A stretch of DNA of 42,850 nucleotides from Gemmatimonadaceae bacterium (GTDB lineage: Bacteria > Gemmatimonadota > Gemmatimonadetes > Gemmatimonadales > Gemmatimonadaceae): positions 1-42,850 of the forward strand of contig JBPCJT010000243.1 of the NCBI GenBank assembly GCA_051005015.1, written 5' to 3'. This document shows, piece after piece, positions 3,686 through 42,850 of this stretch (positions are counted from its first letter, which is position 1; every line of letters starts with the position of its first letter). A program made the position numbers and the translations under genes. The notes under the pieces are model-generated. The model saw only the letters and a list, made by a program, of their open reading frames with translations. It was not told the DNA's origin and searched no databases.

Positions 3686-4702
3686 ATGCCTCAGGAAATC
3701 AAAGACATCATCATTATTGGTGGAGGGCCGACCGGACTTTTCGCCCTCTTCTATGCCGGCATGCGCGGCGTGAGCGCGCGGTTGGTGGACGCCCTTCCGG
3801 AGCCGGGCGGCCAACTCGCCGCCCTGTATCCCGAAAAATACATCTTCGACGTTGGCGGTTTCCCGAAGATTCTCGCCAAGGATCTGGTAAAGGCCCTTCT
3901 GGAGCAAGCGTCCCAGTTCGGCCAACCGCTGCACTTCGGGGAGCGCGTCGTTGGACTCGAGGAAGATAGTGGACTTTTTACGCTGGTAACAGAGAGCGAG
4001 CGCTATCCAGGGCGAGCGGTTGTGATCGCTGGTGGGATAGGAGCGTTCTCCCCACGACGTTTGCCCCAGGCGGCAGCGGCACCCTGGTACGGACGCGGCG
4101 TGTATGATCGCGTACTGAATCCGGAGCAGTTCCGCGGGCAACGCGTGCTGATCGTAGGAGGAGGCGACTCGGCGTTCGACTGGACCCACCAACTCCTGGA
4201 TCGGGCCGCGGCCGTAACGCTGGTGCACCGCAGCGACCGCTTTCGCGCGCACGGAGCGACCGTGAGCGCCGTGAGCGCCGCCGCCGCCGCCGGCCGGGCC
4301 AAAATTCTAACCTTCCACGAACTCGCTGACGTGCGCGGGAATGGTGATCACCTTACAGGGGTAACACTTCGGGACACCAAATCCAAGTCGACACACGACA
4401 TAGAAGTGGATGCCATTATTCCGATGCTTGGTTTCGTCAGCGATCTCGGAGCGATTGCAGAATGGGGGCTCCCTCTACAGAAGGATGAAATCGTAGTCGA
4501 CATTCTTATGGAGACCGGCCGCCACGGAATCTACGCCGCCGGCGACATCACAACCTATCCCGGCAAGCTCAAGCTGATCGCCACCGGTTTCGCCGAAGCC
4601 GCCACAGCCGTGAATCAAGCCGTTCACCGCATTTATCCGGAGAAGAAAGTCGCTCCGGGACACAGCTCGAACATGGCGATTTTTGGGCAGAAGGACGACT
4701 GA
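3686..4702 (+). CDS. ferredoxin-NADP+ reductase, thioredoxin-reductase-like type (YumC-like)
   Basis: FAD motif IIIGGGPTGLFA and NADPH motif LIVGGGDSAFDW. The N-terminus is typical of TrxR-type FNR (GGQL..LYPEKYIFDV.GFP). The redox-active CxxC of true thioredoxin reductases is absent. Confidence 0.88.
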   Translation: MPQEIKDIIIIGGGPTGLFALFYAGMRGVSARLVDALPEPGGQLAALYPEKYIFDVGGFPKILAKDLVKALLEQASQFGQPLHFGERVVGLEEDSGLFTLVTESERYPGRAVVIAGGIGAFSPRRLPQAAAAPWYGRGVYDRVLNPEQFRGQRVLIVGGGDSAFDWTHQLLDRAAAVTLVHRSDRFRAHGATVSAVSAAAAAGRAKILTFHELADVRGNGDHLTGVTLRDTKSKSTHDIEVDAIIPMLGFVSDLGAIAEWGLPLQKDEIVVDILMETGRHGIYAAGDITTYPGKLKLIATGFAEAATAVNQAVHRIYPEKKVAPGHSSNMAIFGQKDD

Positions 4703-4720
4703 ACTGTGATCAGTGAACTA
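4700..4720. repeat. heptamer array TGAACTG TGATCAG TGAACTA starting at the FNR stop codon
   Basis: Read directly from the sequence. The first unit contains the TGA stop at 4700..4702. Confidence 0.6.
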
Positions 4721-4782
4721 ATTGCTCGTCTCAAGTCCCGGGATTTTTTTCGTGCAGCGCAACGTTTCAGTAACAGCATTTG

Positions 4783-5700: not shown

Positions 5701-5760
5701 GAGCGAAGTAGTAGCCATACTGTTGGGGAATTTGTAGCGGTTGCTGTTAGGAGGCCGCAT

Positions 5761-5788
5761 TTCGCAGTCCGCAGTTCGCAGCTCGCAA
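5761..5788. repeat. heptamer array TTCGCAG TCCGCAG TTCGCAG CTCGCAA (C-form of the GATTGCG/GACTGCG family)
   Basis: Read directly from the sequence. Its reverse complement shares the words gattgcg, gactgcg, gaactgcg and gagctgc with the arrays at 24121 and 37742. Confidence 0.65.
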
Positions 5789-5809
5789 TCCTTTGCGACG
5801 GGGAGGGGC

Positions 5810-6889
5810 ATGATGCAGATCGGGAACCGAGCACCGAGTACCGCGCAGTGCCACCCGGACACCGGGCACCGGGCACCGGGCACCGGATTCGTTGCGAGTG
5901 AAAGCCCGTTCAGGCAGCGGCCGCGCCGCGCAATTGCGCTCATTTTCACAGCTCTATTCGTGGTCGCTACCGCGCTTCAGGCGCAGAAGAGCATGACGGA
6001 GCGCGGCATACAGCTCTTTGAGCTAGGTCAATACGACGCTGCGAAAAAGGAGCTTGATGCAGCTCTCCAGCAGGATGAGCGAACCACATCCACACTTTTC
6101 TATCTGGGGCGAATCGCCATGATAGAAGGTGATTTCAGCGGGGCGTCCCGGCTGTTCGAGCGCGCTACTCGCACTGAGGGCGCAACGTCCGAACACTATA
6201 GATGGTTCGGGCAGGCATTGGGACAGTTGGCGGCGCGCGGAAGCAAATTCAAAGCCCCGTTCGCTGCCAGGAAAGCCAGGGCGGCTTTCGAGCGCGCGGT
6301 GTCCCTGGACCCGGAGAACGTGGAGGCGCGCGTGGCGCTGCTGCGGTATTATCTCATCGCGCCCGGCGTGATGGGTGGAAGCACCGAGCGGGCCGCGCGA
6401 CAGGTTCCCGAAATCGCCAGGCGAAGCCCGTTCTGGGGGCGGCTCGCCGCGGCCGGTGTGCACGAAGACCGAGCGGACAATGCCGCCGCGGAACGCGAAT
6501 ACCAGAAAGCCGTCGATGAGTACCCCGACAGCTCATCGGCGCTGTATGCGCTCGGCCTTCTATACCAACGGCTGGAGAAGAACGATGAGGCATTCGCCGC
6601 GTTCGAGCGGATGGTGGAAAAGCACCCCGCCAAAATCAACGCGCTGTATGCTATCGGCCGCCTGGGCGCCCAGACCGGACTGAGGCTGGATCGCTCCGAG
6701 GAGGCTCTCAAACTCTTCCTCTCCAAGCCAGTGAAGGAAGACAACGTGCCGCGATCATCCGCGCTTTACCGGCTGGGTATGATCTACGAGAAGACCGGAC
6801 GGCGAGAACTGGCACGTAAGGAATACGAGGCCTCCCTTGGAATCGAGCAACGCTCCGAAGTAAGGCAAGCGCTTGCCCGGCTAAAATAG
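5810..6889 (+). CDS. TPR-repeat protein, probably secreted
   Basis: There are several TPR-like units (YDAAKKELDAAL, FYLGRIAM.EGDF..A, ALYALGLLY.R.....EA...FE..V, ALYRLGMIYEK.G....A). A signal-peptide-like segment reads RRAIALIFTALFVVATALQAQ. The start is uncertain. The ATG at 5810 has GGGAGGGG upstream but would translate the heptamer array at 5824..5886. No ATG/GTG/TTG exists between that array and the signal-like segment. Confidence 0.7.
   Translation: MMQIGNRAPSTAQCHPDTGHRAPGTGFVASESPFRQRPRRAIALIFTALFVVATALQAQKSMTERGIQLFELGQYDAAKKELDAALQQDERTTSTLFYLGRIAMIEGDFSGASRLFERATRTEGATSEHYRWFGQALGQLAARGSKFKAPFAARKARAAFERAVSLDPENVEARVALLRYYLIAPGVMGGSTERAARQVPEIARRSPFWGRLAAAGVHEDRADNAAAEREYQKAVDEYPDSSSALYALGLLYQRLEKNDEAFAAFERMVEKHPAKINALYAIGRLGAQTGLRLDRSEEALKLFLSKPVKEDNVPRSSALYRLGMIYEKTGRRELARKEYEASLGIEQRSEVRQALARLK
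5824..5886. repeat. nine phase-coherent heptamers (63 nt), consensus GCACCGG, decaying toward the 5' end
   Basis: Units are gaaccga gcaccga gtaccgc gcagtgc cacccgg acaccgg gcaccgg gcaccgg gcaccgg. I verified the coordinates unit by unit. Confidence 0.8.
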
Positions 6890-6914
6890 CAACGCGATCG
6901 AAGCGTCCCATAAT

Positions 6915-6944
6915 GGTGCCTGGCCGGTTTCGGTGCCTGGTTTG
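6915..6944. repeat. two copies of GGTGCCTGG 17 nt apart (inverted form of the GCACCGG unit) just after the TPR gene
   Basis: The sequence is ggtgcctggccggtttcggtgcctggtttg. It contains cggtgcc, the reverse complement of ggcaccg from the 5824 array. Confidence 0.5.
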
Positions 6945-6965
6945 TCGATTTTGGCTCCTGCTTCC

Positions 6966-6994
6966 TTGACCAGAAACAGGTCCAGCGCTAAGAT
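6966..6994 (+). promoter_or_regulatory. candidate sigma-70 promoter for the KaiC cassette (TTGACC - 17 nt - TAAGAT)
   Basis: TTGACC lies at 6966..6971 and TAAGAT at 6989..6994, with exactly 17 nt between them. This would give a leader of about 145 nt before the ATG at 7147. The call rests on sequence pattern only. Confidence 0.3.
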
Positions 6995-7146
6995 GATGCA
7001 TGGCGTCGCCCCCCTATCTTTCAGCCGCGCGGCGCTTTAGGTGCGCTGCCCGCCGCGGAGACGACCGGCTGTTCGCGATCGGCCGGGTGCCCCGTTTCGA
7101 AAAAGCGAAGGCGGCTTAGTGCAATCTGTCCTGCTGGCCACCGGCT

Positions 7147-7569: not shown

Positions 7570-9072
7570 ATGAAAGACGCGAGTGATCTAATCCGGAAGA
7601 TCCGGACCGGCGTACCCGGGTTCGATGCCGTGCTTGGGGGTGGCTTGCCGGAGAATTCCTTCAACCTGGTCGCTGGCGGTCCGGGGTCCGGCAAGACCAC
7701 GCTGACTCTGCACACCATGTTCGCGAACGCCACAGTGAAGAGGCCAGGGCTGTATTTCACGGTGCTCGGCGAGCCGACACTGAAAATGATACGGTACCAG
7801 CGGCAGTTCAGCTTTTTCAAGCCGGACATGGTTGGTTCTGCCTTGCAGTTCGTGAACCTGAGCGAGCAGGTGCTGAAATACGATCTCGACCTGGTTTTGG
7901 AGCGGATACAGCGAGAAGTTGAGCGCGCCAGACCCGGCATCATCGCGGTCGACTCGTTCCGGCCGATAGGCCGCAAAATCGGCGAACCTGTTTCGGCGCA
8001 TGCCATGGACCTCGAGCACTTCCTTCAGCGGCTGGCGCTCAATATGACTTCCTGGGAGGTGACATCCTTTCTGCTCGGCGAGTACTCCGAAGAAGAGAAG
8101 CAGAACCCGGTTTTCACCGTGGCCGACGGAGTGTTCTGGATGCAGCAGGTGACCGACCGGAATTCTGTAGTCCGCAAGATGCAGGTCATGAAGGTACGTG
8201 GGCATGAGCCCATGCCGGGCTTGCACACTTTTCGAATAACGGATGCCGGCCTGCAGATATTCCCACGCATCCCCGAGCAGCAGAAGTCGCGCCGGCCGCA
8301 GTCATTCAAGCGAACCGGCACCGGCGTACCAGGGCTCGACGAGAGAATGGGGGGCGGAATTCCGGTCGGAGACGTGGTAATGCTCGCGGGGCCGGCCGGG
8401 AGCGGCAAAACGACGTTCGCTTCGCAATTCGTGTCAGAAGGTCTCCGACAGGGTGAGTCCGCGGTGATCGCGATTTTCGAGGAATACCCCGAGGAGTATC
8501 TCGGGCGCGCCCGATCCCGGAATGGGGACCTGGAGGAGAAGCTGAAGTCGGGTAAGCTGAAGCTCCTGTACTTGCGTCCGCTCGATCTCTCGGTGGACGA
8601 AACGCTGCATGAAATTCTGGAGGCCGTCAACGAGGTCGGTGCCACACGAGTGGTAATAGACTCGCTGTCGGGTTTCGAGATTGCGCTCGCACCTGCATTC
8701 CGTGAAGACTTCAGGGAGTCGCTTTATCGTCTTGCTGGTGCGCTGACTGCGACTGGCGTGACCGTTTTCACGACCGCAGAAACGACCGGCAGGTATTCCG
8801 ATTTGAGCTTTACGACCGAAAGGGTTTCCTTCATCACCGATGACATCATCGTGCAGCGCTATGTCGAGGTTGACGGGGAGATTCTTACGATCCTGTCGAT
8901 CATGAAAATGCGCGGGAGTGAGCACAGCCGGGAGTTTCTCATCTACGAGATCACCGAAAAGGGAGCGTCCGTGGGGGGTCCGCTTCTGGGCTACCACGGC
9001 ATCCTGTCGGGAATACCCAGCCCAATAGCGTCACTCGAGCGCCCGGCCGGGGTACATGGTGAAAATGGCTGA
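7570..9072 (+). CDS. KaiC-family double RecA-like ATPase
   Basis: There are two tandem KaiC/RecA domains, each with GVPG(F/L)D...GGG(L/I)P and a Walker A motif (GGPGSGKTT, GPAGSGKTT). Walker B motifs are IIAVDSF and VVIDSLS. The C-terminal KMRGSEHS...EIT.KG segment is typical of KaiC. Confidence 0.9.
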   Translation: MKDASDLIRKIRTGVPGFDAVLGGGLPENSFNLVAGGPGSGKTTLTLHTMFANATVKRPGLYFTVLGEPTLKMIRYQRQFSFFKPDMVGSALQFVNLSEQVLKYDLDLVLERIQREVERARPGIIAVDSFRPIGRKIGEPVSAHAMDLEHFLQRLALNMTSWEVTSFLLGEYSEEEKQNPVFTVADGVFWMQQVTDRNSVVRKMQVMKVRGHEPMPGLHTFRITDAGLQIFPRIPEQQKSRRPQSFKRTGTGVPGLDERMGGGIPVGDVVMLAGPAGSGKTTFASQFVSEGLRQGESAVIAIFEEYPEEYLGRARSRNGDLEEKLKSGKLKLLYLRPLDLSVDETLHEILEAVNEVGATRVVIDSLSGFEIALAPAFREDFRESLYRLAGALTATGVTVFTTAETTGRYSDLSFTTERVSFITDDIIVQRYVEVDGEILTILSIMKMRGSEHSREFLIYEITEKGASVGGPLLGYHGILSGIPSPIASLERPAGVHGENG

Positions 9073-16198: not shown

Positions 16199-16272
16199 TT
16201 CTATCAGGATAGCAAATGCCACTTCAACTTGGAAGTGCGCTTGGCCCATCTAATACAGTTTATCTTTTCCGC

Positions 16273-16584
16273 ATGGGACAATACAAACACCACGTTTTCG
16301 TATGCACATCTGGTTCTCAGTGCCCGGGCAGAGGCTCGGAAGCTGTGCACAGCGCGCTGAAACACGGCGTCAAGGACGCGGGCCTAAAGGGAACTGTTCG
16401 CGTCAATCACGCGGGCTGCATGAACCAGTGTAAACATGGTCCGATGGTTGTTGTTTACCCGGGCGATATCTGGTATCACTCAGTGGACGTGCACGGGGCG
16501 AACCGAATCGGGCGCGAGCATCTGATAGCCGGCCGAGTCGTCGAGTCGTATAGATACAAAGCGCCGCCGGGCGATAACAAGTGA
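16273..16584 (+). CDS. thioredoxin-like [2Fe-2S] ferredoxin
   Basis: MGQYKHHVFVCTSGSQC...GCMNQCKHGPMVVVYP...WY. The Cys pattern is Cx5C...Cx3C. It is a paralogue of 21080..21409. Confidence 0.8.
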   Translation: MGQYKHHVFVCTSGSQCPGRGSEAVHSALKHGVKDAGLKGTVRVNHAGCMNQCKHGPMVVVYPGDIWYHSVDVHGANRIGREHLIAGRVVESYRYKAPPGDNK

Positions 16585-16697
16585 AGAGTGAACAGCCCAA
16601 CAGCGAACAACTGTAAACAACACTTGTGGGAGTCGATGCATGCCGGCTAACCGCACTTCACTGATCACTTAATCACTGTTCACCGTTCACCGTTCAC
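16581..16697. terminator. inverted pair of 6x7-nt heptamer arrays (GTGAACA family) between the convergent ferredoxin and hydrolase genes
   Basis: Left arm 16581..16622: gtgaaga gtgaaca gcccaac agcgaac aactgta aacaaca. Right arm 16656..16697: cttcact gatcact taatcac tgttcac cgttcac cgttcac. The ferredoxin TGA (16582..16584) lies in the first left unit. The hydrolase C-terminus EVNGER-stop is encoded by the right arm. Confidence 0.6.
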
Positions 16698-17765: not shown

Positions 17766-18055
17766 GGGGCCTTCCGTATTGAGCCGGTGGTACACGCTCG
17801 GTGCAGTCCTTTTTTGAGGAAGCCGCTTTCCGGTATCCGCATTATGGCGACGCGATTCCGACGGTGGAAGATTCACAAGCGTAACGTGGCGTCAAGCCCG
17901 CGTTTCGCATGGGTGCGTTGCTCTTGACCGCCTATGTAGGTATCCTAACCTTCGTTCGGGGGTCGCAAGCGCTGTGCGACAGGGTGTTCGTAGATCGCAT
18001 CCACCTGAAACCGTCAAGCCGTCGTTCAGTCTTCTCTTTATCCGGAGTCTTGAAT

Positions 18056-22311: not shown

Positions 22312-22469
22312 TGCTTCCTCCTTGCTGACAGTCGCCGCTCGGCTCCAGCGCGTTCGATAAGGATATTATACACGAATTGGTGGCAAGGGGTCGCGCGCGG
22401 GAGGAGGGAGGCGCTTCGCGGGCGGCGAGGGCTAATCCGATGACGTATTTGTCGGGCGCAAGTCATTGC

Positions 22470-22565
22470 CGTCTCCACGTCTCCCGCCTTCACGCCTTCC
22501 GTCTCTCGCCTCCAACGCTTCCCGCCTCCACGCCTCCCACCTCCCGCCTCCCGCCTCCCGCCTCC
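22470..22565. repeat. 13-unit CG-initiated pyrimidine array (units CGYCTYC, 7-9 nt); the complement is a run of GGAGG motifs
   Basis: Units are cgtctcca cgtctcc cgccttca cgccttc cgtctct cgcctccaa cgcttcc cgcctcca cgcctcc cacctcc cgcctcc cgcctcc cgcctcc. The array lies between divergent htpX and the 22583 gene. It is followed by TATATT (22567..22572) 10 nt before the ATG. Confidence 0.8.
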
Positions 22566-22582
22566 CTATATTCCACTCCCTC

Positions 22583-22897
22583 ATGCCGAACCCCTTCAAC
22601 CTCGATCCGCGCCGCCTCGCTCTCGGAGCTGCCAAGCGTTATCTCCTGGACGATCGCCCACCTGGCTCGGCGGCAGACAAACCGCCGCGCCTGACTCCCG
22701 AAGCCCTTTCACACACAAAAATGTCCCGTTCTCGCGAGCGTATTCTCGCCAATCTCGACGATATGTTCGGAGAGGCGTTCGAGCGCGCCAAAGCCGCCGG
22801 CGACGACGCGCAGATGCAAACCCTCGACTTCGCGTACAGGCGCGAGCAACTCTACCTGGAGATCCTCCTGGACATTCGCGATGCGGTAGAAAAGTGA
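22583..22897 (+). CDS. hypothetical protein (104 aa)
   Basis: An in-frame ATG follows the pyrimidine array (MPNPFNLDPRRLALGAAKRYLL...). The C-terminal half is helical and charged. I recognise no family. Confidence 0.5.
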   Translation: MPNPFNLDPRRLALGAAKRYLLDDRPPGSAADKPPRLTPEALSHTKMSRSRERILANLDDMFGEAFERAKAAGDDAQMQTLDFAYRREQLYLEILLDIRDAVEK

Positions 22898-22915
22898 ACA
22901 CTGATCACGGTTCAC
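22894..22915. terminator. short hairpin GTGAAC-actgatcacg-GTTCAC shared by two convergent genes, with both TGA stops inside the stem arms
   Basis: The plus-strand gene stop TGA is at 22895..22897, and the TerC stop (tca on plus) is at 22912..22914. The stem is 6 bp. The motif belongs to the same GTGAACA/TGATCA family as 4700 and 16581. Confidence 0.5.
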
Positions 22916-23910: not shown

Positions 23911-23933
23911 GTCTGCCTCGGCTATCGCTTCGT

Positions 23934-23979
23934 AAAAAAAGACGAGACCCTACGGCACTCATGTGTCCGTAGTGGTCTC
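23934..23979 (-). terminator. intrinsic terminator (expression platform of the Mn2+ riboswitch)
   Basis: The minus strand reads GAGACCACTACGG-acacatgagtg-CCGTAGGGTCTC, then gtcTTTTTTT. This is a 12-bp stem with one bulge followed by T7 (A7 at 23934..23940 on plus). Confidence 0.75.
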
Positions 23980-24090
23980 GCCTCGTGAGCCGGCCAACCG
24001 GGTGCGCCGCTGACGCTCCGTATTGACGATTGACCGCGCCGGCTTAGAATCGCCGGCAGGCTACTCCCCACCTGCGCGTAGTTTCGCCAG
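23934..24090 (-). promoter_or_regulatory. yybP-ykoY (Mn2+) riboswitch upstream of the TerC gene
   Basis: The minus strand reads ...gcgcaggtGGGGAGTAGcctgccggcgattctaagccggcgcgGTCAATcGTCAATAcggagcgtcagcggcgcacccggttggccggctcacgaggcGAGACCactacgg.... The hallmark GGGGAGUAG lies at 24069..24061, together with a UCAAUAC-type segment and a closing GAGACC. It sits directly 5' of a TerC gene, a classic regulon member. The aptamer 3' strand overlaps the terminator 5' arm. Confidence 0.8.
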
Positions 24091-24120
24091 GCGAAGGTAT
24101 TAGAGCAAGGGGGTCGAGGG

Positions 24121-24207
24121 GATTGCGGATTGCGGATTGCGAAGCACAGGCCAGTTGCGAACTGCGTCCGCAAATGCGAGCTGCAAGTTCCTGGTTCCTG
24201 GTTCCTG
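24121..24207. repeat. composite heptamer arrays: (GATTGCG)x3, a degenerate GCGAACT/GCGAGCT stretch, then (GTTCCTG)x3
   Basis: 24121..24141 reads gattgcg gattgcg gattgcg. 24153..24186 reads agttgcgaactgcgtccgcaaatgcgagctgcaa. 24187..24207 reads gttcctg gttcctg gttcctg. Confidence 0.8.
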
Positions 24208-24273
24208 GTGTACTGTTGCATTCAAAATACGACTCTGGTTCCTTTCTCGGTCACGGGTCACTCCAATTCCCGC

Positions 24274-31828: not shown

Positions 31829-31859
31829 GCGAAGCCAGGGAAGCCGACGGCGGGGAGTC

Positions 31860-31881
31860 GGGAAGCGTCCAACACGCTTCC
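31860..31881 (+). terminator. hairpin GGAAGCG-tccaaca-CGCTTCC 32 nt after the OmpA-family stop (no T-run)
   Basis: A perfect 7-bp stem with a 7-nt loop, read directly from the sequence. Its 3' arm is also the first unit of the heptamer array at 31875. Confidence 0.4.
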
Positions 31882-31937
31882 CGCTCTGCGCCTCCCGTCT
31901 CCCGCTCTGCGCCTCCCGCCTCCCGCCCCCCGCCCCC
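31875..31937. repeat. nine phase-coherent heptamers (63 nt), consensus CGCCTCC, ending 1 nt before the HIT start codon
   Basis: Units are cgcttcc cgctctg cgcctcc cgtctcc cgctctg cgcctcc cgcctcc cgccccc cgccccc, followed by c and the ATG at 31939. I verified the coordinates unit by unit. Confidence 0.85.
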
Positions 31938-31938
31938 C

Positions 31939-32433
31939 ATGACCAAGGCTAGTGCGCATTGTATTTTCTGCGACATCGTCAAGGGTGCCGCAGAGGTGTC
32001 CGTGTGTTACGAGGACGCGGACGTGCTGGCATTTATGGACATTCAGCCCGTAAATCCGGGGCACACCCTCGTTGTTGCGCGAGCTCATCACGAGTCACTC
32101 GAAGAACTGCCCAGGGCACTCGGCGAACATCTCTTCGGGGTGGCGCTCATGCTCGGGCCTGTGATCCACAAAGCATCGCAAGCCGAGGGAATGAATCTGA
32201 TAGTTTCGAGCGGGGCGGCGGCGGGGCAGGATGTCTTTCACTTCCACATTCACCTGATTCCGCGCAGGAAGGGGGATGGCTTCGAAGTTCAGCTCCCCTT
32301 TGGCAGATCGGAGATGCCTGACCGCACCATGCTCGACGCCATGGCTGCGCGCATCATATCGGTGCTTCGAGATCCAGCGAGGAGCAGGAAAACGAATGTC
32401 GGGAAGCGAAGGGACCGGGGGAGTGGAGAGTAG
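31939..32433 (+). CDS. HIT (histidine triad) family hydrolase
   Basis: C.FC.I..G, then DI.PVNPGH.LV, and the triad HFHIHLIPR. Confidence 0.9.
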   Translation: MTKASAHCIFCDIVKGAAEVSVCYEDADVLAFMDIQPVNPGHTLVVARAHHESLEELPRALGEHLFGVALMLGPVIHKASQAEGMNLIVSSGAAAGQDVFHFHIHLIPRRKGDGFEVQLPFGRSEMPDRTMLDAMAARIISVLRDPARSRKTNVGKRRDRGSGE

Positions 32434-32497
32434 GGAGCAGGGAGGGAGATTACAACGGTTACCCGCCATCCTTACTCCCTACTCCCCGCTCCCCTTC
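32422..32497. terminator. inverted pair of 4x7-nt arrays (AGTGGAG family / complement) between the convergent HIT and MCP-like genes; both TAG stops lie inside the arms
   Basis: Left arm 32422..32449: agtggag agTAGgg agcaggg agggaga. Right arm 32470..32497: ccttact ccCTAct ccccgct ccccttc. The 21-nt cores match 17/21 as inverted copies. Both proteins end in GSGE-stop. Confidence 0.65.
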
Positions 32498-34941: not shown

Positions 34942-35346
34942 ATGTTGAAGACTGGCCAGACTAGACAACGCGTTCACCGAACAGCCCTTCCACGTGCGAT
35001 AATGCGTCGCGCGCGCCCGCACGTGCACGCCGCCCACAAGCGAGCGCTCAAGCGCGCCACCTTACGAGATTGCGCCAACCGCTGCGTTTATTGCGGTTTA
35101 TGTCTCGATTCGGAGATGGCGACGCTGGACCACGTTTTTCCAATCGCCAGAGGAGGCATGCACACACCCGGGAACGTGGTCACTGCATGTGGTCCATGCA
35201 ACCGGCGCAAGGGGGACATGCTCCCGCACGAGTTTTTTCACCGGTATCCAGGAGCGGGATTGAATTTTCTGGCTTATGCGCGCGTGGTGCACAGGGCCTT
35301 GAAGCGAGGGGCGCGCCGGGCGGTCAGTCTGGCCATGGCGGCCTAG
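34942..35346 (+). CDS. stand-alone HNH endonuclease
   Basis: CVYCG...LDHVFPIARGG.....NVVTACGPCNRRKG (CxxC...DH...N...CxxCN). Confidence 0.8.
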   Translation: MLKTGQTRQRVHRTALPRAIMRRARPHVHAAHKRALKRATLRDCANRCVYCGLCLDSEMATLDHVFPIARGGMHTPGNVVTACGPCNRRKGDMLPHEFFHRYPGAGLNFLAYARVVHRALKRGARRAVSLAMAA

Positions 35347-35767: not shown

Positions 35768-35797
35768 GTATCCTCCTGAAATTGCGCGGTCCGAACC

Positions 35798-35818
35798 GGG
35801 CACCGAACACCAAGCACC
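35798..35818. repeat. heptamer array GGGCACC GAACACC AAGCACC between nadE and the membrane-protein gene
   Basis: Read directly from the sequence. It belongs to the same GCACC family as 5824..5886. Confidence 0.6.
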
Positions 35819-35852
35819 CCGAACGTTGCGCGATTTAGCTCGCCAAGTGTCC

Positions 35853-37697
35853 CTAGAAATCCACCGGCCGCAAATAGGATTCTCCGATCGCCGTTGGGCT
35901 CACCATGGCAACCGTCGGCAGCCGCCGTTTCCAATGCGTACTCTCGAGCCGCTTGCGCACCAGTTCCACCTCGTCCATCACGAAGCCGCGGGATACCAGA
36001 TCGGCTGGTGAGTAGCCCGTCAACAGCCAGTTCAGAATCGTGTCCGCCTTCTGGTAGCTGATTCCGAAGTCTCCTTCATCTGTCTGCCCCGCCACGAGGT
36101 CCGCGGAGGGCGGCTTGGTGACGATCACGTCCGGAATGCGCAGATGCCGTGCTAGTGCGACGACCTGGCTCTTGAAGAGATCGCCGAGCGGATTTACGGG
36201 TGGTGAGTCGTCCGCGTGCCACGTGAAGTAGCCGAACAGGCGTTCCGTCTTGTTGCCGGTTCCCAGCGGGATGGCGCGGTAGCGGGCCGAAAGTTCGAAG
36301 AGCGCAATCATTCGCATTCGCGCCATGACATTTCCGCGCCGCGCGCCGTCCGCGGCGGGCTCGTTTGCGAGGTAGGCATCGACAGGGGCGGTGATGTCAG
36401 TCGTCCTCGCCTCGATCCCTAACGCATCAATGACGAGCTGCGCGTGTGACAGACTTTCCGGACTCGACGCGTGATAGGGCAATCGAACGCCGATGACGTT
36501 TTCGGCGCCGAGCGCGCGCGTGGCGAGGTACGCCGTGACCGCGGAATCGACGCCACCCGAAATGGCGACAATGCCCTTCTGAAAGCCACGCTGACGTATC
36601 TCGTCCCGGATGAATTCGACCAGCCACTGCTCAGTAAGCGCCCCATCTATCTCGAGCGGCGGCGGTCCTTCGAAGTCGAATTTCGTCGGCACGACGAGCT
36701 CGAGGGGTCCAGATGACTCCTGTGACGGCGCTTCCGGATGGACGAGCGCATGTTCGGTTTCGCCCTCTATCACGGGATCGTACACCAGGGGCTCTCCAAT
36801 GCCTGAGCGCACGCGGCTCAGGTTGTCAATGAGATGCGGCAGGGCGGTTCGCATGTCGGCCAGGAGCGGCATGTCGGCGCGTGTGCGGGTGAGATCGCCA
36901 ATGTCGAGCGTGATTGCCACAAGCGCTTCGCGCCAGAGCGGGCCTCGAACACGGACATCGCCCTTTGGTCCGCTGACCATAGCGCCCCCTGGGAATCCCT
37001 TGCCGCCCTCGTTGCCGACCAGATTCGCGAATGGCACGAAGATGCCGTGCTCCTCGGCGATATCGCGGACCAGGCGCTCCCAACGGGCGCAGCTCGCGGG
37101 GCCCGGAACGTCATCGTCGCGCGGCCAGAGTCCGCGCGCGGGAGCGGCGGCCAGAATGAAAACCATCTGGGCGCCGTCGAGCGCCGCGAGGGATCCGGTG
37201 ATGCTGTGCCACGCGTCCTCGCAGACGAGCATCGCAGCGCGTCCCCACGACGTGTCGAAAGCGCGAACCCCGTGCGCGCGCTCCACGAAACGCTCTTCGT
37301 CAAAGAGCCCGTATGTTGGGAGGAAATTCTTGCGGTGTACGTGACGAATGATCGGCTCGCCTGGCCCGAGCGTCACATATATCGCGCTGTTGTACAGAAT
37401 GTTGTTCCAGACCTCGTAGAAGCCAACGGCAACGTCGAGGGCGCGTGCTCCACAACCAGCGCGCTGGTAAGCGCGGGCGAGGTCGCGCACGAGCGTACCC
37501 GCTGTGACGGCAAGGTCACGTACACCACCTTCGACGAAATAACCGGTGAGCGCAGTTTCCGGCAGCAGCAGGATGTGCGGTCTCGGCTCGAGAGCGTCGG
37601 ATTGCGCAAAGATCTTGCTTAGCCGATCGAGATTGGCGGCGTAGTCGCCCTTGCTTGTTTTGAACTGTGCGATGGCGAGGTGAACTAGAGGCGGCAT
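35853..37697 (-). CDS. nadE: glutamine-dependent NAD+ synthetase
   Basis: The N-terminal CN-hydrolase domain includes the catalytic-Cys context MLVCEDAW. The C-terminal NAD synthetase domain carries the PP-loop ISGGVDSAVTAYLA. Confidence 0.92.
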   Translation of the reverse strand: MPPLVHLAIAQFKTSKGDYAANLDRLSKIFAQSDALEPRPHILLLPETALTGYFVEGGVRDLAVTAGTLVRDLARAYQRAGCGARALDVAVGFYEVWNNILYNSAIYVTLGPGEPIIRHVHRKNFLPTYGLFDEERFVERAHGVRAFDTSWGRAAMLVCEDAWHSITGSLAALDGAQMVFILAAAPARGLWPRDDDVPGPASCARWERLVRDIAEEHGIFVPFANLVGNEGGKGFPGGAMVSGPKGDVRVRGPLWREALVAITLDIGDLTRTRADMPLLADMRTALPHLIDNLSRVRSGIGEPLVYDPVIEGETEHALVHPEAPSQESSGPLELVVPTKFDFEGPPPLEIDGALTEQWLVEFIRDEIRQRGFQKGIVAISGGVDSAVTAYLATRALGAENVIGVRLPYHASSPESLSHAQLVIDALGIEARTTDITAPVDAYLANEPAADGARRGNVMARMRMIALFELSARYRAIPLGTGNKTERLFGYFTWHADDSPPVNPLGDLFKSQVVALARHLRIPDVIVTKPPSADLVAGQTDEGDFGISYQKADTILNWLLTGYSPADLVSRGFVMDEVELVRKRLESTHWKRRLPTVAMVSPTAIGESYLRPVDF

Positions 37698-37741
37698 GCG
37701 GAGAAAATGGCGCGGGAGGAGGGGTGAGGCAACTGGGTAGG

Positions 37742-37881
37742 GATTGCGGACTGCGGATTGCGGATGACGCCTAACCGCTCATGGAGGCGGGATGGCAACC
37801 GACTAGATTGCGGCCAAGCTGGTGGTGGCCACAGGGACGCTCTAACGGACGGTTGGTCCGGCAATCCGCGATCTGCAATCA
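37742..37881. repeat. inverted heptamer arrays of the GATTGCG family flanking a ~90-nt spacer
   Basis: 37742..37769 reads gattgcg gactgcg gattgcg gatgacg. 37861..37881 reads gcaatcc gcgatct gcaatca. The 20-nt cores match 17/20 as inverted copies. An extra gattgcg lies at 37807..37813. Confidence 0.75.
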
Positions 37882-37887
37882 TTTTCA

Positions 37888-40747: not shown

Positions 40748-40830
40748 TACCACGGTACTGTTTCAGGGAACAGGGAGCATGGCAAGGCAGGTATCTGCTC
40801 CGATGCAATCTTGCGCGGCCGTCCATTTGA

Positions 40831-42850
40831 GTGAATGATCGCTCGGTGCGTGAATTCCGATTCGATATCCCATCCATCGAGCTGCTGCGCCAGCTCCTCT
40901 CCGCTCCCCTCCCACTCGGGTTTCGCGGCTCCGATCCGGAACGTTCGCTCCACCGTGATATCTACCTGGACTCTCCCGACGAGACGCTGAAACGCCGGGG
41001 AGTCTCCTGCAGACTCCGATTCTGCGCGGACGACCGCCGCTTTCTCACCCTGGAGATCGGAAGCCCGGACAAAACGGGCGACCAGAATGTCGAGCGTTTC
41101 AGCGCCCACACCGAGGCATCCGATGCGCGGCTGGCCGTGACCGGAGAGTCCCCTCCGGCGCGCCGGTTGCGAGGAATAATGGACCCTGCATCCCTGGCGC
41201 CAGTGCTGCAGGTGGAGACGGAACGGTGGACGCGCCGAGCGGCAAGCGGTTGGTTCGGTCCCAAAGCCGCATTTCTGTATGACATCGTCACGGTTCGATC
41301 TGGCGCTACCTCAAAGTCTTTTCAACAGCTCACCGTCATTCCGCTTGGTGGTGGGATACTCTCAGCGGAAAAGCTCGAGAGCGAGCTACGGGAAGCGCAC
41401 GGGCTGCGAATCAGCCGCGCGTCCACGTACGAGCGCGCGCGGCTGCTGCTCAAGTGGATGCGCGGGGAGGATGGAACAGCGACCGAAAACCAGCAACCAG
41501 GAACCAGGGAAGCTGCGGATGAGTGGCCCCCGGTTTCCCAGACCGTGGTCCCCCACGCTACTCCTGCACGCACACGCGCAGTCGCTTCTCGCATGCGGGC
41601 GAGCGTACCCGTCACAACTTCCAGCGCCGGGGGCGGCGCCGCCTCCGAGTTCCTGAACAGCGAGCTCAGCCTCCTAGAATTCAACGCGCGCGTCCTAGCG
41701 CTGGCAGAGGACCCCGGAACACCGCTCCTCGAGCGTCTGCGCTTTCTGGCAATCGTGAGCGCAAACAACGACGAATTCTTCATGGTTCGCGTCGCGGGAC
41801 TCAAGGACGATGCAAGCGAGACATCGGAGGAGCGTAGTCAGGATGGAATGTCAGCCGATGAACAGCTCATTGCCATCGCGCTTCGGGTGCCGCCCTTCCT
41901 GGCGCGCCAGTACAACTGCTACAGGCAGTGCATGAACGAGCTCGCAAAGCATGGCGTTCGCACCGTTACCTGGAGTGAGCTCGATGACGCACAGCGCGAG
42001 TATCTCCGGGGCTATTTTCGGGACGAGCTCTACCCCGCGCTCACACCGTTCGCCATGACGCTCAGTCCCGGACACCCATTTCCCACGATCCCGCATCTCT
42101 CCTTGTCGCTCGCGGTACTCGTCCTCGATCCAGGGCGCCCACCGGCGCACTTCGCGGAGGTAGAGCTGCCTGAGAGAATTCCACGCTTTACGACGCTTCC
42201 TGGTTGCGCCCATGTGATCGCCATGGAAGAGATTGTGCGCGCTAATCTCGCCGCGCTGTATCCTGATGCCCACGTCGAGCAGGCATGGATGTTCCGAATT
42301 ACGCGGAGCGGTGACCTGGCGTTGGAGGAGGAAAGCGCCGACAACCTGCTGCAGGCAGTTCATGACGCCACTACGCGCCGGGCGCGCAACGCCGTGGTGC
42401 GCGTCGAGGTTGAGCGTGGGATGCCGGACATGTTGCGCGATCTGCTCCTGCGGCAGCTCAAGAGCGAGCGCGGATCCGATGCAAGCGACCTCTCGCTTGA
42501 CGACTTTTACGAAGTAGAGGGCCTGCTGGATCTTCGTTGCCTGGGCGAGCTCGCCTCGCTGGCAATTCCCGAGCTGCGGTATCCGCCCTTTGAGCCAGGC
42601 AATTCGCTCTCGGCGCGCAGCTCGATGTTCGATCAGATTACCAAGCGCGATTTGCTGGTGCATCACCCCTTTGACGACTTCGCGGCTACGGTGCAGCGGT
42701 TCATGATAGAAGCTGCTGACGATCCGGATGTGAGCGCGATCAAGCTGACTGTGTACCGCGCCGGGGAGCGCTCGCCACTGCTTGACGCCCTCATCAAGGC
42801 AGCGGCAGCTGGCAAGGAAGTCATCGTTTTTGTGGAGCTCAAGGCACGCT
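40831..42850 (+). CDS. ppk: CYTH domain fused in frame to polyphosphate kinase 1 (3' end beyond the window)
   Basis: In my translation from the GTG at 40831 (a TGA lies immediately upstream in frame) I found no stop codon up to 42850. Residues 1 to about 210 are CYTH-like (VREFRFDI...RDIYLDSPDETLKRRGVSCRLRF...LTLEI). From about residue 270 the PPK1 N-terminus begins: FLNSELSLLEFNARVLALAEDPGTPLLERLRFLAIVSANNDEFFMVRVAGLKD. The ORF is absent from the track only because it is open at the window edge. Confidence 0.85.
   Translation, partial: MNDRSVREFRFDIPSIELLRQLLSAPLPLGFRGSDPERSLHRDIYLDSPDETLKRRGVSCRLRFCADDRRFLTLEIGSPDKTGDQNVERFSAHTEASDARLAVTGESPPARRLRGIMDPASLAPVLQVETERWTRRAASGWFGPKAAFLYDIVTVRSGATSKSFQQLTVIPLGGGILSAEKLESELREAHGLRISRASTYERARLLLKWMRGEDGTATENQQPGTREAADEWPPVSQTVVPHATPARTRAVASRMRASVPVTTSSAGGGAASEFLNSELSLLEFNARVLALAEDPGTPLLERLRFLAIVSANNDEFFMVRVAGLKDDASETSEERSQDGMSADEQLIAIALRVPPFLARQYNCYRQCMNELAKHGVRTVTWSELDDAQREYLRGYFRDELYPALTPFAMTLSPGHPFPTIPHLSLSLAVLVLDPGRPPAHFAEVELPERIPRFTTLPGCAHVIAMEEIVRANLAALYPDAHVEQAWMFRITRSGDLALEEESADNLLQAVHDATTRRARNAVVRVEVERGMPDMLRDLLLRQLKSERGSDASDLSLDDFYEVEGLLDLRCLGELASLAIPELRYPPFEPGNSLSARSSMFDQITKRDLLVHHPFDDFAATVQRFMIEAADDPDVSAIKLTVYRAGERSPLLDALIKAAAAGKEVIVFVELKAR
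41486..41506. repeat. heptamer array AAACCAG CAACCAG GAACCAG inside the CYTH-PPK linker
   Basis: Read directly from the sequence. It is the reverse complement of the GTTCCTG family seen at 24187..24207. Confidence 0.6.

Follow-up and report, generated by a model that had tools for sequence, protein, structure and literature searches.

The window, which is the entire 42,850-nt stretch analysed, belongs to the genome of a Gemmatimonadaceae soil bacterium, which is GC-rich and non-cyanobacterial. Its tandem arrays were located with Tandem Repeats Finder (TRF), lag-match scans compared with shuffles, and phased layouts. Period 7 is the sole strongly over-represented tandem period. At a cut-off of at least 17/21 matches, the lag-match scan gives 8 period-7 arrays versus 0.01 in shuffles, one array each at periods 8 and 9, three at period 14 that are harmonics of the period-7 arrays, and none at the remaining periods from 3 to 15. 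Relaxed thresholds give 10 period-7 arrays versus 0.2 expected, and 17 versus 1.5. The period-7 arrays that a first-pass annotation had described in the spacers stand out clearly from shuffled controls.

Eight spacers contain robust arrays (3043-3685, 5701-5900, 16585-16679, 22312-22582, 23911-24250, 31829-31938, 32434-32478, and 37698-37887), and five sites are weak or partly coding (4700, 6915, 22894, 35798, and 41486). The first-pass annotation had counted at least 15 spacers, but lists only 13 sites. The features are as follows, with TRF hits of period 7 unless another period is given.

3325..3404: inverted pair with a 30-nt loop. The left arm is a perfect (GACAGGAT)x3 of period 8 (TRF 3325-3349) and the right arm is ATCCTGTTA/ATCCTGGTC/ATCCTGT of period 9 (3380-3404); the arms are 22/23 identical with 2 gap blocks. 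The spacer is divergent, with a cobalamin adenosyltransferase gene (2497-3042, minus) on one side and an oxidoreductase gene (3686-4702, plus) on the other.
4694..4721: weak array of the GTGAACA family, GACGACT GAACTGT GATCAGT GAACTAA (phased layout). It begins on the TGA stop codon 4700-4702, puts TGA into all three frames, is under the 11/14 scan threshold, and has no fold signal (z +1.4). T7 preceded by TCCCGGGA is present after 4702.
5754..5795: single-arm TTCGCAG TCCGCAG TTCGCAG CTCGCAA (TRF 5756-5787, 4.6 copies; also in scans), the reverse complement of the GGATTGC/GGACTGC/GAACTGC family. It is unstructured (z +0.7), with rsgA upstream and a TPR protein gene downstream.
5824..5886: nine units, GAACCGA GCACCGA GTACCGC GCAGTGC CACCCGG ACACCGG (GCACCGG)x3 (phased layout). 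The 3' end is perfect (exact run 5860-5886; TRF 5855-5886, 96% matches).
6913..6947: weak and irregular array related to the GCACCGG/AACCAGG family (phased layout). GGTGCCTGG is repeated at a distance of 19 nt, so the period is not strictly 7; every scan missed it (fold z -0.3).
16581..16697: inverted pair of the GTGAACA family (TRF 16657-16698, 5.9 copies). The left arm (16581-16622) is decayed and the right arm (16656-16697) terminates in TGTTCAC (CGTTCAC)x2; the arms are 23/32 identical. It spans the convergent stop codons of genes 16216-16584 (plus) and 16680-17876 (minus).
22469..22566: single-arm (CCGCCTC)n of about 13-14 units (TRF 22469-22566, score 95, 13.3 copies, higher-order periods 22 and 38), unstructured (z +0.9) and with four perfect units at its 3' end. 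It lies in a divergent spacer and stops 17 nt short of the start of a conserved 104-aa gene (ATG at 22583); homologues of 104-108 aa place it upstream of the true start.
22894..22915: 6-bp mini-hairpin GTGAACA CTGATCA CGGTTCAC (-6.2 kcal/mol, z -1.3), occupying the 14-nt spacer between the convergent stop codons of the 104-aa gene and TerC.
24120..24183: perfect (GGATTGC)x3, then about six decayed units (TRF 24120-24141, 100% matches; phased layout). TerC/amidohydrolase divergent spacer, adjoining the conserved TerC leader.
24184..24211: perfect (GTTCCTG)x3.3 immediately 3' of the preceding array (TRF 100% matches, exact run 24187-24209).
31875..31937: nine in-register units of the CGCCTCC family, which also form a higher-order unit of 21 nt (TRF 31889-31938, periods 7 and 21; phased layout). 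It is preceded by a short GC hairpin after an OmpA-family gene, abuts the HIT gene ATG (31939), and is identical in independent assembly L081.
32418..32494: inverted pair GGGGAGT GGAGAGT AGGGAGC AGGGAGG / complement, the arms being separated by a loop of 19 nt (inverted repeat I2, 29 nt, 83%). It extends over the stop codons of both convergent genes, HIT (end 32433) and MCP (end 32479), and is identical in L081.
35792..35826: weak single-arm GGCACCG AACACCA AGCACCC in a convergent spacer (phased layout), under the scan thresholds (fold z +0.6).
37741..37880: inverted pair (GGATTGC GGACTGC GGATTGC G) / (GCAATCC GCGATCT GCAATC) around a loop of some 90-99 nt (TRF 37741-37765; inverted repeat I12, 20 nt, 85%). 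Its divergent spacer is flanked by nadE (35853-37697, minus) and a 241-aa gene.
41483..41510: weak three-unit AACCAGC AACCAGG AACCAGG (TRF 41488-41508, score 35) inside an ORF, in the low-complexity linker of a CYTH-polyphosphate kinase (PPK) fusion (Pfam domains, translation).

The unit families named in the first-pass annotation are present where it had placed them, and its two 9x7 = 63-nt arrays, 5824-5886 and 31875-31937, each comprise nine units in one register. The strict register and period claimed for all arrays do not extend to the left arm of 16581..16697, with a lag-7 self-identity of only 0.51 (0.69 in the right arm), nor to the octamer array, whose partner has period 9. The arrays are almost entirely outside coding sequence, but several arms extend into the final codons of genes and the 41486 site is in an ORF, so that "intergenic" is not strict. 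The same unit families are found again at unlinked loci more often than by chance (11 pairs with at most one mismatch versus 2.3 +/- 1.6), and single copies of the recurring units are not enriched. The arrays are not an assembly artefact: between 31169 and 34107, two array spacers included, the window matches an independent Logan assembly of run SRR33880242 at 100% identity.

Inverted pairs and array ends

Inverted pairs with long hairpins had been reported for many arrays. They occur at 4 sites, of which 3 form very stable hairpins: 3318-3410 (-40.3 kcal/mol, z -7.3), 32412-32500 (-53.6 kcal/mol, z -5.4), and 37738-37884 (-67.3 kcal/mol, z -4.4). The fold of 16575-16700 is weaker (-32.9 kcal/mol, z -2.2), and the remaining arrays are single-armed and unstructured. 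Inverted pairs make up about 36% of arrays. At locus L030, the palindrome has perfect 46-nt arms; the arms are identical at 39/39 and 34/35 positions, whereas unit identity within an arm is only 0.86-0.88. The 3325 octamer hairpin is nested in a 270-nt quasi-palindrome (3245-3513) with 27-nt terminal inverted repeats, and a second copy of this element is absent from the 213 loci searched. Apart from the arrays, (GGATTGC)n pairs on five contigs have nothing in common in their loops and flanks.

No U-tracts were found after the array stems, and a stem + U7 terminator occurs in the TerC leader of this lineage. Canonical terminators in the window show no excess over the shuffle level, and 3' spacers without arrays are unstructured.

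Arrays had also been described as perfect at one end and decaying toward the other. This is true of 5824-5886, 16656-16697, and 22469-22566, but it is not general. About 2 Mb of sequence yielded 252 perfect cores, of which 163 have two abrupt ends and 70 have one decaying end, while in 19 both ends decay, compared with 156/85/12 expected if the sides are independent. These counts do not bear out growth at one end.

Strains, relatives, and other contigs

The only differences among three near-identical strains (L084/L085 versus L086) over 150 nt are one loss and one gain of 7 nt, each within an array, and in L086 the unit is lost from one arm only. The window has 3.6 units in the nadE spacer array and L084 has 7 (+2), with flanks common to both. 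The TerC spacer array has, at one site, 3 units in L207/L208, 3 plus decayed units in the window, and about 13 in L210. The convergent spacer between the 104-aa gene and TerC contains the 6-bp hairpin in the window and a 111-nt heptamer hairpin of 5 and 4 units in L207/L208; in L209 the array is absent despite an identical encoded protein. The 22469-22566 array is missing from relatives L207-209, and the 31875-31937 site has different arrays or none in relatives. Arrays are gained and lost between lineages with 84-90% protein identity, units at one spacer can differ between close relatives, and presence is patchy among them. Overall, orthologous spacers have a matching unit at a matching site in 3 to about 13 copies, or no array.

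Period 7 is again dominant, with period 8 second, among related and unrelated contigs that total about 2 Mb (GC 0.36-0.73). In 1.32 Mb of Gemmatimonadota DNA, 58/71 period-7 arrays lie beyond coding sequence or at its edge, even though deep coding sequence represents 76% of the bases. The non-coding fraction contains 58 arrays of period 7, 18 of period 9, 15 of period 12, 13 of period 8, 11 of period 6, 9 of period 11, and 2 each of periods 4, 5, and 10. Contigs bearing (GGATTGC)x3 (688 kb, GC 0.36-0.73) contain 138, 55, and 41 arrays of periods 7, 8, and 9, and at most 9 at periods 4, 5, 10, and 11, the (GGATTGC)x3 array itself being left out. The x3 arrays in IMG/VR number 42/4, 10/0, 9/18, and 0/4 for real/scrambled heptamers. 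Unit variation is often limited to one position, as in GTCAGAG/C/A, GATGGGA/C/T, and GGATTGC/GGACTGC. Corrected array density is alike in divergent, tandem, and convergent spacers, with no preference for gene 3' ends. The same architecture is present in dozens of independent MAGs and metagenomes.

Origin of the arrays

The arrays are probably heptanucleotide (occasionally octanucleotide) simple-sequence repeats, STRR-like, which this Gemmatimonadaceae lineage accumulated in non-coding DNA by slippage. Whole 7-nt units are gained and lost between close strains, copy number differs several-fold at orthologous sites, and coding sequence is largely free of arrays. Slipped-strand mispairing in replication would be the driver, with 14- and 21-nt steps giving the higher-order units (periods 21, 22, and 38 by TRF), and arrays would survive only in places where a unit length not divisible by three is harmless.

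Slippage, as already proposed in the first-pass annotation, agrees with the exact 7-nt indels and the copy-number variation, but independent slippage cannot make arms that mirror one another down to the single unit variants, such as those of L030. An inverted pair would arise when one arm is copied en bloc in the opposite orientation, through intramolecular template switching or fold-back synthesis, after which the arms would slip and mutate separately. Copying en bloc is suggested by the L030 arms, which are more alike than the units inside an arm; separate evolution is suggested by the one-arm unit loss in L086 and by periods 8 versus 9 at 3325/3380. The dominance of period 7 across contigs of widely differing GC and the scrambled heptamers in x3 arrays point to a generic process, and the preference for 7 and then 8 may be a property of the replication/repair machinery rather than of a sequence-specific factor. 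The window contains no transposase, RAYT, reverse transcriptase, integrase, or Rfam family. This absence of mobility genes and Rfam families, the unrelated loops and flanks, and the similar density among spacer types argue against a dedicated system. Most arrays would lack a dedicated function, and the long hairpins may incidentally influence transcript ends or DNA stability.

Some observations stand against slippage. Random seeds do not predict the recurrence of unit families at unlinked loci, and neither the sharp favouring of period 7 over 4, 5, 10, and 11 nor the share of inverted pairs is accounted for. Hairpins that start exactly at stop codons in several lineages could indicate function, and the nadE and TerC arrays, which keep site and unit across lineages, could reflect selection and not mere tolerance. 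The patchiness among close relatives suggests a lineage-specific factor.

The inverted pairs resemble functional RNA hairpins (bidirectional terminators or REP/BIME-like 3'-end stabilisers, the heptamers merely lengthening the stems) in their very stable folds (z -4.4 to -7.3) and in that 16581-16697 and 32418-32494 span convergent-gene stop codons. In relatives and metagenome contigs, pairs begin within a few nt of stop codons (L030, L043, L052, L060, L011 after the same PDH-E1 gene; L088, L112, L139, L161), and the shuffle-level count of canonical terminators and the unstructured other 3' spacers also favour such a role. It is nevertheless unlikely, since one in two robust arrays of the window has a single arm and no structure (z > 0), the pairs at 3325 and 37741, two of the four, lie in divergent spacers where a terminator is needless, and corrected density per kb is alike across spacer types. 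The stems have no U-tract though the lineage has the TerC leader terminator and TCCCGGGA-T7, they vary in presence between strains with identical proteins, and at 46-65 bp they much exceed any terminator. Multimeric protein-binding sites, with one monomer per 7-8 nt of a DNA-bending global regulator, such as was suggested for Geobacter metallireducens, or of a cold-shock-domain protein on RNA, and with pairs enabling looping, are distinctly unlikely: several unrelated unit families within 43 kb would each require their own protein, units at the same spacer vary between close relatives, one site has 3 to 13 copies, scrambled heptamers also form arrays, and the window has no array-linked candidate gene. 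Consistent with binding are the restricted unit repertoire at unlinked loci, the one-position variation between units, the opposite-strand pairs at variable distance as in the Geobacter classes (PMC2700814), and the binding of heptamer repeats by CspB, one molecule per heptamer (cited in PMC4679880).

Contingency loci, in which unit number in promoters or 5' leaders reversibly tunes adjacent genes as do the 7-bp repeats upstream of Haemophilus influenzae hmw1A/hmw2A, would fit the positions of 22469-22566 and 31875-31937 before an ATG, of 24120-24211 and 37741-37880 in divergent promoter regions, and the polymorphic unit number among strains; heptanucleotide phase variation is on record (PMC8262952, PMC12721329). 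They are very unlikely here, as the neighbours are housekeeping (HIT, NAD synthase, amidohydrolase, TerC, TPR protein) and not typical surface or restriction genes, arrays are as common downstream of genes, many have decayed and so lost mutability, and there is no sign of switching. An origin as remnants or ends of small mobile elements, either MITE-like or REP mobilised by a RAYT, that spread through the genome has only a slender chance. One unit does occur at several unlinked loci, the L030 arms are a perfect palindrome, the octamer hairpin sits within an element with terminal inverted repeats, and Geobacter class 1 sites are at a fixed distance from IS elements (PMC2700814). Against this, the (GGATTGC)n pairs have arrays alone in common, target-site duplications were not seen, the window has no mobility gene, and the 3245-3513 element has no second copy in the 213 loci; strain differences are exact single-unit indels and not whole-element insertion or excision, and orthologous sites are retained while copy number shifts. 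The probability of chance or assembly artefact is virtually nil overall. Sites 4700, 6915, 35798, and 41486 are weak enough for chance, but for the robust arrays it is ruled out by the shuffle excess, the independent assembly, and the recurrence in MAGs.

Heptamer repeats in other bacteria

The first-pass annotation was not aware of any earlier description of this organisation, but published cases precede it. According to the passage of Rehm 2015 (PMC4692102) that cites Mrazek 2007, many bacterial genomes have an excess of heptameric simple repeats, and polymerase slippage is the hypothesis for bacterial simple repeats. Xanthomonas has intergenic GGGAATC arrays, some of them inverted pairs (Rehm 2015, PMC4692102), and TAACTGA arrays are found in Beggiatoaceae, Cyanobacteria, and Bacteroidetes (MacGregor 2015, PMC4679880). 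Geobacter metallireducens has several classes of 3-5 tandem hepta-, octa-, or 8-9-nucleotide units, mostly as opposite-strand pairs at variable distance (Aklujkar 2009, PMC2700814); such paired elements were not identified in the sister species, and the authors read the classes as global-regulator sites (PMC2700814). The literature search found nothing that ties such repeats to Gemmatimonadota.

The organisation was rightly called STRR-like, and it is present in a GC-rich non-cyanobacterial genome. The cyanobacterial STRR are alike in heptanucleotide units, tandem amplification, and few unit families over many spacers. G. metallireducens likewise has multi-class paired hepta/octamer arrays, and the Xanthomonas GGGAATC repeats are likewise intergenic heptamer arrays with inverted pairs. 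The arrays of the window behave like ordinary slippage-prone simple repeats of the kind already described in cyanobacteria, Xanthomonas, and Geobacter.

Heptanucleotide arrays in the window

The heptanucleotide repeat family of the window is real and statistically overwhelming. Tandem Repeats Finder finds nine arrays of period 7 and one of period 8 where the first-pass annotation, which had claimed multi-family period-7 arrays in at least 15 spacers, places them. The period scan that it proposed, run on the window as a lag autocorrelation with shuffles that preserve local composition, yields an excess of period 7 over shuffles and not an absence. Exact periodic runs at period 7 number five, with none expected. 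This excess of tandem short units over composition-matched shuffles is that of a slippage-type heptanucleotide SSR.

Table. Arrays in the window by period and threshold (expected numbers from shuffles)
Threshold ≥17/21: period 7, 8 arrays (0.01 expected); period 8, 1; period 9, 1; period 14, 3 (harmonics); other periods, 0
Threshold ≥12/14: period 7, 10 arrays (0.2 expected); any other period, at most 3
Threshold ≥11/14: period 7, 17 arrays (1.5 expected); any other period, at most 9

The unit families comprise GGATTGC, GCACCGG, CGCCTCC, GTGAACA, GTTCCTG, and GACAGGAT. They recur within the window, with 11 pairs within one mismatch (2.3 ± 1.6 expected) and three exact ones (0.14 expected). Seed abundance is rejected as the reason for this recurrence, as single unit copies are not enriched. 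The arrays at 5824-5886 and 31875-31937 have nine units each in a single register, which bears out the strict 9 × 7 = 63 nt described for two arrays, and the array at 24121-24183 starts with three perfect units and continues with about six decayed ones. Two C-rich single arrays stop 17 nt and 1 nt short of the start codons at 22583 and 31939.

The figure of at least 15 spacers overstates the number. The annotation itself lists 13 sites, and eight spacers are robust. The sites at 4700, 6915, and 35798 are weak or irregular, the one at 22894 is a mini-hairpin of 6 bp, and the one at 41486 lies in a linker inside an open reading frame. An assembly artefact fails as an objection, because a Logan assembly of SRR33880242 is 100% identical to the window along a 2,939-nt stretch that takes in the 31875 and 32418/32466 arrays.

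Predicted folding divides the arrays cleanly into inverted pairs, with two arms in opposite orientation, and single arms:

3318-3410, inverted pair, -40.3 kcal/mol, z -7.3
32412-32500, inverted pair, -53.6 kcal/mol, z -5.4
37738-37884, inverted pair, -67.3 kcal/mol, z -4.4
16575-16700, inverted pair, weaker, -32.9 kcal/mol, z -2.2
5750-5890, single arm, -50.5 kcal/mol, z +0.7
22420-22569, single arm, -31.9 kcal/mol, z +0.9
24112-24215, single arm, -33.3 kcal/mol, z +0.6
35785-35850, single arm, -15.4 kcal/mol, z +0.6

The long hairpins proposed for inverted pairs therefore hold for these four pairs, one of them weaker, while the other arrays are single-armed. The four pairs have loops of 19-99 nt. 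Two of them (16581-16697 and 32418-32494) cover the stop codons at which convergent genes end, and the other two (3325-3404 and 37741-37880) lie in divergent spacers. The octamer hairpin is the centre of a 270-nt quasi-palindrome at 3245-3513, with outer arms of 27 nt (3245-3271 and 3487-3513) that are 81% complementary and a DNA fold of -61.3 kcal/mol (z -5.3). No second copy of this element is present in the 213 loci compared.

The arrays are free of stop codons in some orientations and inflate ORF predictions, and three window ORFs are affected. The longest-ORF predictions 5741-6889, 22466-22897, and 24130-25959 pass through stop-free heptamer arrays, so that the N-termini of a TPR protein, a 104-aa protein, and an amidohydrolase are over-extended. 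Homologue lengths and domain positions place their true starts downstream of the arrays.

Host genes and the TerC leader

The window, a piece of chromosome with a GC content of about 61%, carries housekeeping and envelope genes of ordinary kinds. These encode a TonB-dependent receptor, PBP1A, a fused PDH-E1, NAD synthase, phosphoglycerate dehydrogenase, a KaiC homologue with a histidine kinase, an MCP, RsgA, the TPR protein, TerC, a CYTH-PPK fusion, and other metabolic enzymes. The fused PDH-E1 has 72-87% identity to proteins from 80 Gemmatimonadaceae and Gemmatimonadales genomes, and those homologues of two small window proteins that have source names are labelled Gemmatimonadaceae or Gemmatimonadota. 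The earlier description of a GC-rich non-cyanobacterial genome is therefore correct, and the genome belongs to Gemmatimonadota. Several genes deserve mention in their own right:

7570-10804, KaiC homologue (500 aa) followed by an overlapping histidine kinase, in a non-cyanobacterial genome
28997-30385, minus strand, Ser/Thr protein kinase gene in three reading frames relative to the 909-aa orthologue in the relative L084, with the C-terminal ~450 residues missing
34942-35346, stand-alone small HNH endonuclease gene (134 aa), with a gene of the same length at a comparable position in the relatives L082, L083, and L084
40831-42849 (off the window end), CYTH domain fused in frame to polyphosphate kinase 1 via a low-complexity linker

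The split kinase gene is either a pseudogene or the product of assembly indels. Heptamer arrays are rejected as the cause of its frameshifts, which lie elsewhere than the arrays. The CYTH-PPK linker holds the weak AACCAGG array at 41486, and the loci compared contain no orthologue that could confirm the fusion or the coding status of this array.

The TerC gene (22912-23910) is preceded by a leader of ~190 nt (23911-24105, minus strand) with near base-for-base conservation in five Gemmatimonadota lineages (the window and the relatives L207/L208, L210, and L211/L212). The leader contains GGGGAGTAGCC, and its consensus structure has several helices and closes with a terminator made of a stem and U7. 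It has no Rfam family at E ≤ 1. The predicted structure looks like a riboswitch-type attenuator, possibly a divergent manganese (yybP-ykoY-like) element.

Variation, pairing and origin of the arrays

Period 7 is also the commonest period in relatives. The 1.25 Mb around PDH-E1 in 80 Gemmatimonadota species contain 42 such arrays versus one in shuffles, and the load is patchy, with five arrays in some 22-kb loci and none in many. Crude gene calls put 58 of the 71 period-7 arrays beyond coding sequence or at its edge, although deep coding sequence makes up 76% of all bases. This is the depletion of non-multiple-of-three units from coding sequence that characterizes SSRs. In the non-coding fraction, period 7 (58 arrays) stands at least threefold above every other period.

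The comparison of orthologous spacers finds unit number to be polymorphic, as the first-pass annotation had suggested examining. Over 150 nt of the OmpA-HIT spacer of the near-identical strains L084, L085, and L086, the only differences are two exact 7-nt indels inside arrays, one of -7 and one of +7 between L084/L085 and L086. In the nadE spacer, the GGATTGC/GGACTGC array counts 3.6 units in the window versus 7 plus 2 in L084, with common flanks and a common start point. For the array adjoining the TerC leader, the unit numbers are 3 in L207/L208, 3 plus ~6 decayed in the window, and ~13 in L210. Whole-unit allele differences are thus seen in relatives, and the only other copy from the strain of the window shows no difference.

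Sites are also gained and lost. The spacer between the convergent 104-aa gene and TerC holds a 14-nt mini-hairpin in the window, a 111-nt heptamer-periodic hairpin with both ends on stop codons in L207/L208, and an unrelated 41 nt in L209, which encodes an identical protein. L207-209 lack the (CCGCCTC) array that has 14 units in the window. Whole-unit changes, persistent sites with variable copies, and gain and loss together indicate slippage-prone simple repeats. At the place of the (CCGCCTC)x14 spacer, the 90%-identity lineage has a PIN-domain toxin with a small partner gene:

L207 1713-2389, PIN-domain toxin region
L208 101-777, PIN-domain toxin region
L209 507-1183, PIN-domain toxin region

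A sample of ~2 Mb contains 363 period-7 arrays and 66 inverted pairs, which account for ~36% of the arrays and leave ~64% unpaired. The gaps in these pairs are 3-243 nt, with a median of 47 nt. Two pairs in L030, a relative's PDH-E1 locus, have arms that match at 39/39 and 34/35 positions, including those that vary from unit to unit, and form full palindromes of 46-65 nt per arm starting at stop codons. The internal lag-7 identity of these arms is only 0.86-0.88, which rules out independent slippage of both arms. The mirrored unit variants suggest that one arm is an en-bloc copy of the other, for which template switching within the molecule would be the simplest route. After copying, the arms drift independently, as indicated by a unit loss confined to one arm in L086 and by an octamer arm that pairs with a nonamer arm in the window.

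Array organisation appears to be widespread and not specific to Gemmatimonadota. A metagenome scan with (GGATTGC)x3 returns at least 120 contigs, with GC 0.36-0.73 among the matches listed, and the architecture is common in environmental contigs over this range. The listed contigs (688 kb, selecting arrays left out) contain 138 arrays of period 7, 55 of period 8, and 41 of period 9, with at most nine each for periods 4, 5, 10, and 11. Their array density equals that of the window, and each has several unit families and many inverted pairs. Judged by GC content alone, other phyla would be involved and (GGATTGC)n would be spread across them. For L144, an array-rich contig of low GC, the protein chosen for taxonomy is a promiscuous sugar epimerase and is uninformative on the taxon.

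The high-GC metagenome contig L157 (GC 0.60) has inverted arrays at 3956-4130 of TTGGTCA/TGACCAA, the unit of cyanobacterial STRR2. The IMG/VR contig L240 has seven (GGATTGC)n matches in 8.7 kb, and L263 has one ~290-nt (GCACCGG)n array at 12572-12858. Heptamer arrays also occur in DNA of phages or prophages, unless these viral-classed contigs are wrongly binned host DNA. One MAG contig (L079) ends in ~100 consecutive G (12737-12846), which most likely arose in sequencing or assembly.

A fairly probable explanation of the arrays is that they arise by replication slippage, are now and then mirrored by template switching, and are tolerated only outside coding sequence. We infer these molecular mechanisms, together with the near-neutrality of the arrays and any effect that they may have on transcripts. 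Growth at one end, which the annotation had proposed, is not supported as a rule. Anchored on 252 perfect cores, the polarity test finds 163 abrupt on both sides, 70 with one-side decay, and 19 with both-side decay, close to the 156/85/12 expected for independent sides. Sequence-specific amplification is weakened by the IMG/VR x3 arrays, where scrambled heptamers are found as well (42/4, 10/0, 9/18, and 0/4 for four real units versus composition-matched scrambles). Nearly any heptamer can apparently be amplified, with some favoured. As reasons for unit choice, CsrA-type GGA motifs, G-quadruplexes, and sites of the rut type for Rho are set aside, since none appears to fit all families.

The (GGATTGC)n pairs of five unrelated contigs have arrays in common and unrelated loops and flanks, and no transposase, RAYT, or reverse transcriptase is found among the window genes. 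A mobile element is rejected on these unrelated loops and flanks, the lack of a window transposase, and the single copy of 3245-3513. The same single copy among 213 loci argues against a MITE, as do the lack of homologous internal sequence and strain differences that are single-unit indels. A REP/BIME-type unit would require a conserved palindrome of 20-40 nt, which was not found; the 7-nt unit alone is in common. The array hairpins do not fit an intrinsic (Rho-independent) terminator, in which a U-tract comes straight after a GC-rich stem-loop at the 3' end of a gene, and two of the four pairs lie in divergent spacers. The array stems have no consistent T-runs on their 3' side and so lack a U-tract, unlike the TerC leader of this lineage with its stem plus U7 terminator. 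A consensus terminator scan of the window flags no array hairpin, and its terminator and promoter counts are at shuffle level. Array densities are similar in divergent (~0.28 per kb), tandem (0.42), and convergent spacers (0.33), after arithmetic correction for 150 nt trimmed from ORF 5' ends, and there is therefore no preference for gene 3' ends. The whole window has no Rfam family at the gathering threshold.

The sharp 7-then-8-nt optimum, the limited unit repertoire per genome, the abundance of mirror-image pairs tied to stop codons, and an all-or-none spread in sister lineages would suit a dedicated, lineage-variable activity that writes and maintains paired arrays in many soil-bacterial phyla, in place of passive slippage. 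Candidates could be a polymerase or primase capable of template switching, or a protein that binds nucleic acid with a footprint of 7 nt. Such an activity is quite improbable; if real, it would constitute a REP/RAYT-like system of a different kind. Practical consequences are modest, and the arrays could be strain-typing markers for uncultured Gemmatimonadota.

Comparison with known repeat systems

STRR are the short tandemly repeated repetitive sequences of heterocystous cyanobacteria, with the canonical units CCCCAGT, TTGGTCA, and CAACAGT. None of these units is present in the window. The arrays resemble STRR in their heptanucleotide units, tandem amplification, and few families at many non-coding loci, with family recurrence of 11 pairs against 2.3 expected. 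They differ in phylum, GC content, and the prominence of inverted pairing. REP units are imperfect palindromes of 20-40 nt with conserved sequence and no 7-nt period, and are mobilised by RAYT. Like REP/BIME of enterobacteria and pseudomonads, the arrays are abundant, intergenic, hairpin-forming, and often inverted between genes, whereas here the period alone is conserved, loops and flanks are unrelated, and the window has no RAYT. In Haemophilus influenzae, 7-bp promoter repeats drive hmw1A/hmw2A phase variation. Four arrays occupy candidate contingency-locus positions, in a promoter, leader, or 5' coding region (22469-22566, 31875-31937, 24120-24211, and 37741-37880).

The literature searched contains no description that ties such repeats to Gemmatimonadota, and a 2025 tree-of-life survey of short tandem repeats mentions neither heptamers nor this phylum. 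The 2007 survey by Mrazek, Guo and Shah is said to be earlier than any Gemmatimonadota genome. The present data extend the STRR/Xanthomonas/Geobacter-type heptamer organisation to Gemmatimonadota and add comparative evidence of whole-unit change, orthologous persistence at 3 to ~13 copies, and occasional en-bloc mirrored hairpins.

Many bacterial genomes have an excess of heptameric simple repeats (Mrazek 2007, as reported in Rehm et al. 2015; PMC4692102). As summarised there, these prokaryotic long repeats share the period-7 excess, intergenic location, and proposed slippage (Mrazek, Guo and Shah 2007), and one hypothesis is that the DNA segment in the polymerase active site favours slippage at this unit size. 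TAACTGA arrays occur in Beggiatoaceae, Cyanobacteria, and Bacteroidetes (MacGregor 2015; PMC4679880). They are likewise intergenic, with 2-6 or more units often near start codons in RBS position, with other heptamer families in the same spacers, and with presence or absence between close relatives. In contrast to the arrays here, they have one dominant AT-rich unit that bears a stop codon and is nearly always direct, with one inverted case (PMC4679880).

The arrays work like STRR elements and are most closely similar to the paired arrays of Xanthomonas and Geobacter. Two Xanthomonas genomes have 186 and 183 GGGAATC-type arrays, some as inverted pairs, whose length and sequence vary extensively between the two species (Rehm et al. 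2015; PMC4692102). Xanthomonas GGGAATC and Nostoc GGGGAYT share with the present arrays the intergenic location, 2-26 units, and some inverted pairs with one array per strand, and Xanthomonas also shares extensive variation at the same gene pairs between close species (PMC4692102). The unit CGGGAAT/CGGGAAA of an L084 array is a rotation of GGGAATC. Xanthomonas has essentially one G-rich family, read as G-quadruplex-forming (PMC4692102), whereas the window has at least five families, most without G-quadruplex potential.

Geobacter metallireducens has 49 elements of four heptanucleotides, 24 pairs of four octanucleotides, 21 pairs of three 8-9-mers, and 8 pairs of five heptanucleotides; the two sites of a pair are on opposite strands, and their spacing varies (Aklujkar et al. 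2009; PMC2700814). The authors of that study hypothesise that these repeats, of fixed length, are binding sites for global regulators. The G. metallireducens units, GGACCGG, GTTGCTYN, TCTCCGTS[Y], and MTYCTGA, differ from those found here, and one class also occurs within genes (PMC2700814). Copy number is 2 to ~14 and strain-variable here, whereas no polymorphism is reported for G. metallireducens. Both systems have several classes in a non-cyanobacterial genome, are mainly intergenic, and have short tandem units, 3-5 units of 7-9 nt per Geobacter site, an organisation also found in the window (PMC2700814). Opposite-strand pairs include most Geobacter sites and ~36% of the arrays here. No such paired elements are identified in the sister species of G. 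metallireducens, and the arrays of Gemmatimonadaceae loci are likewise patchy among relatives (PMC2700814).
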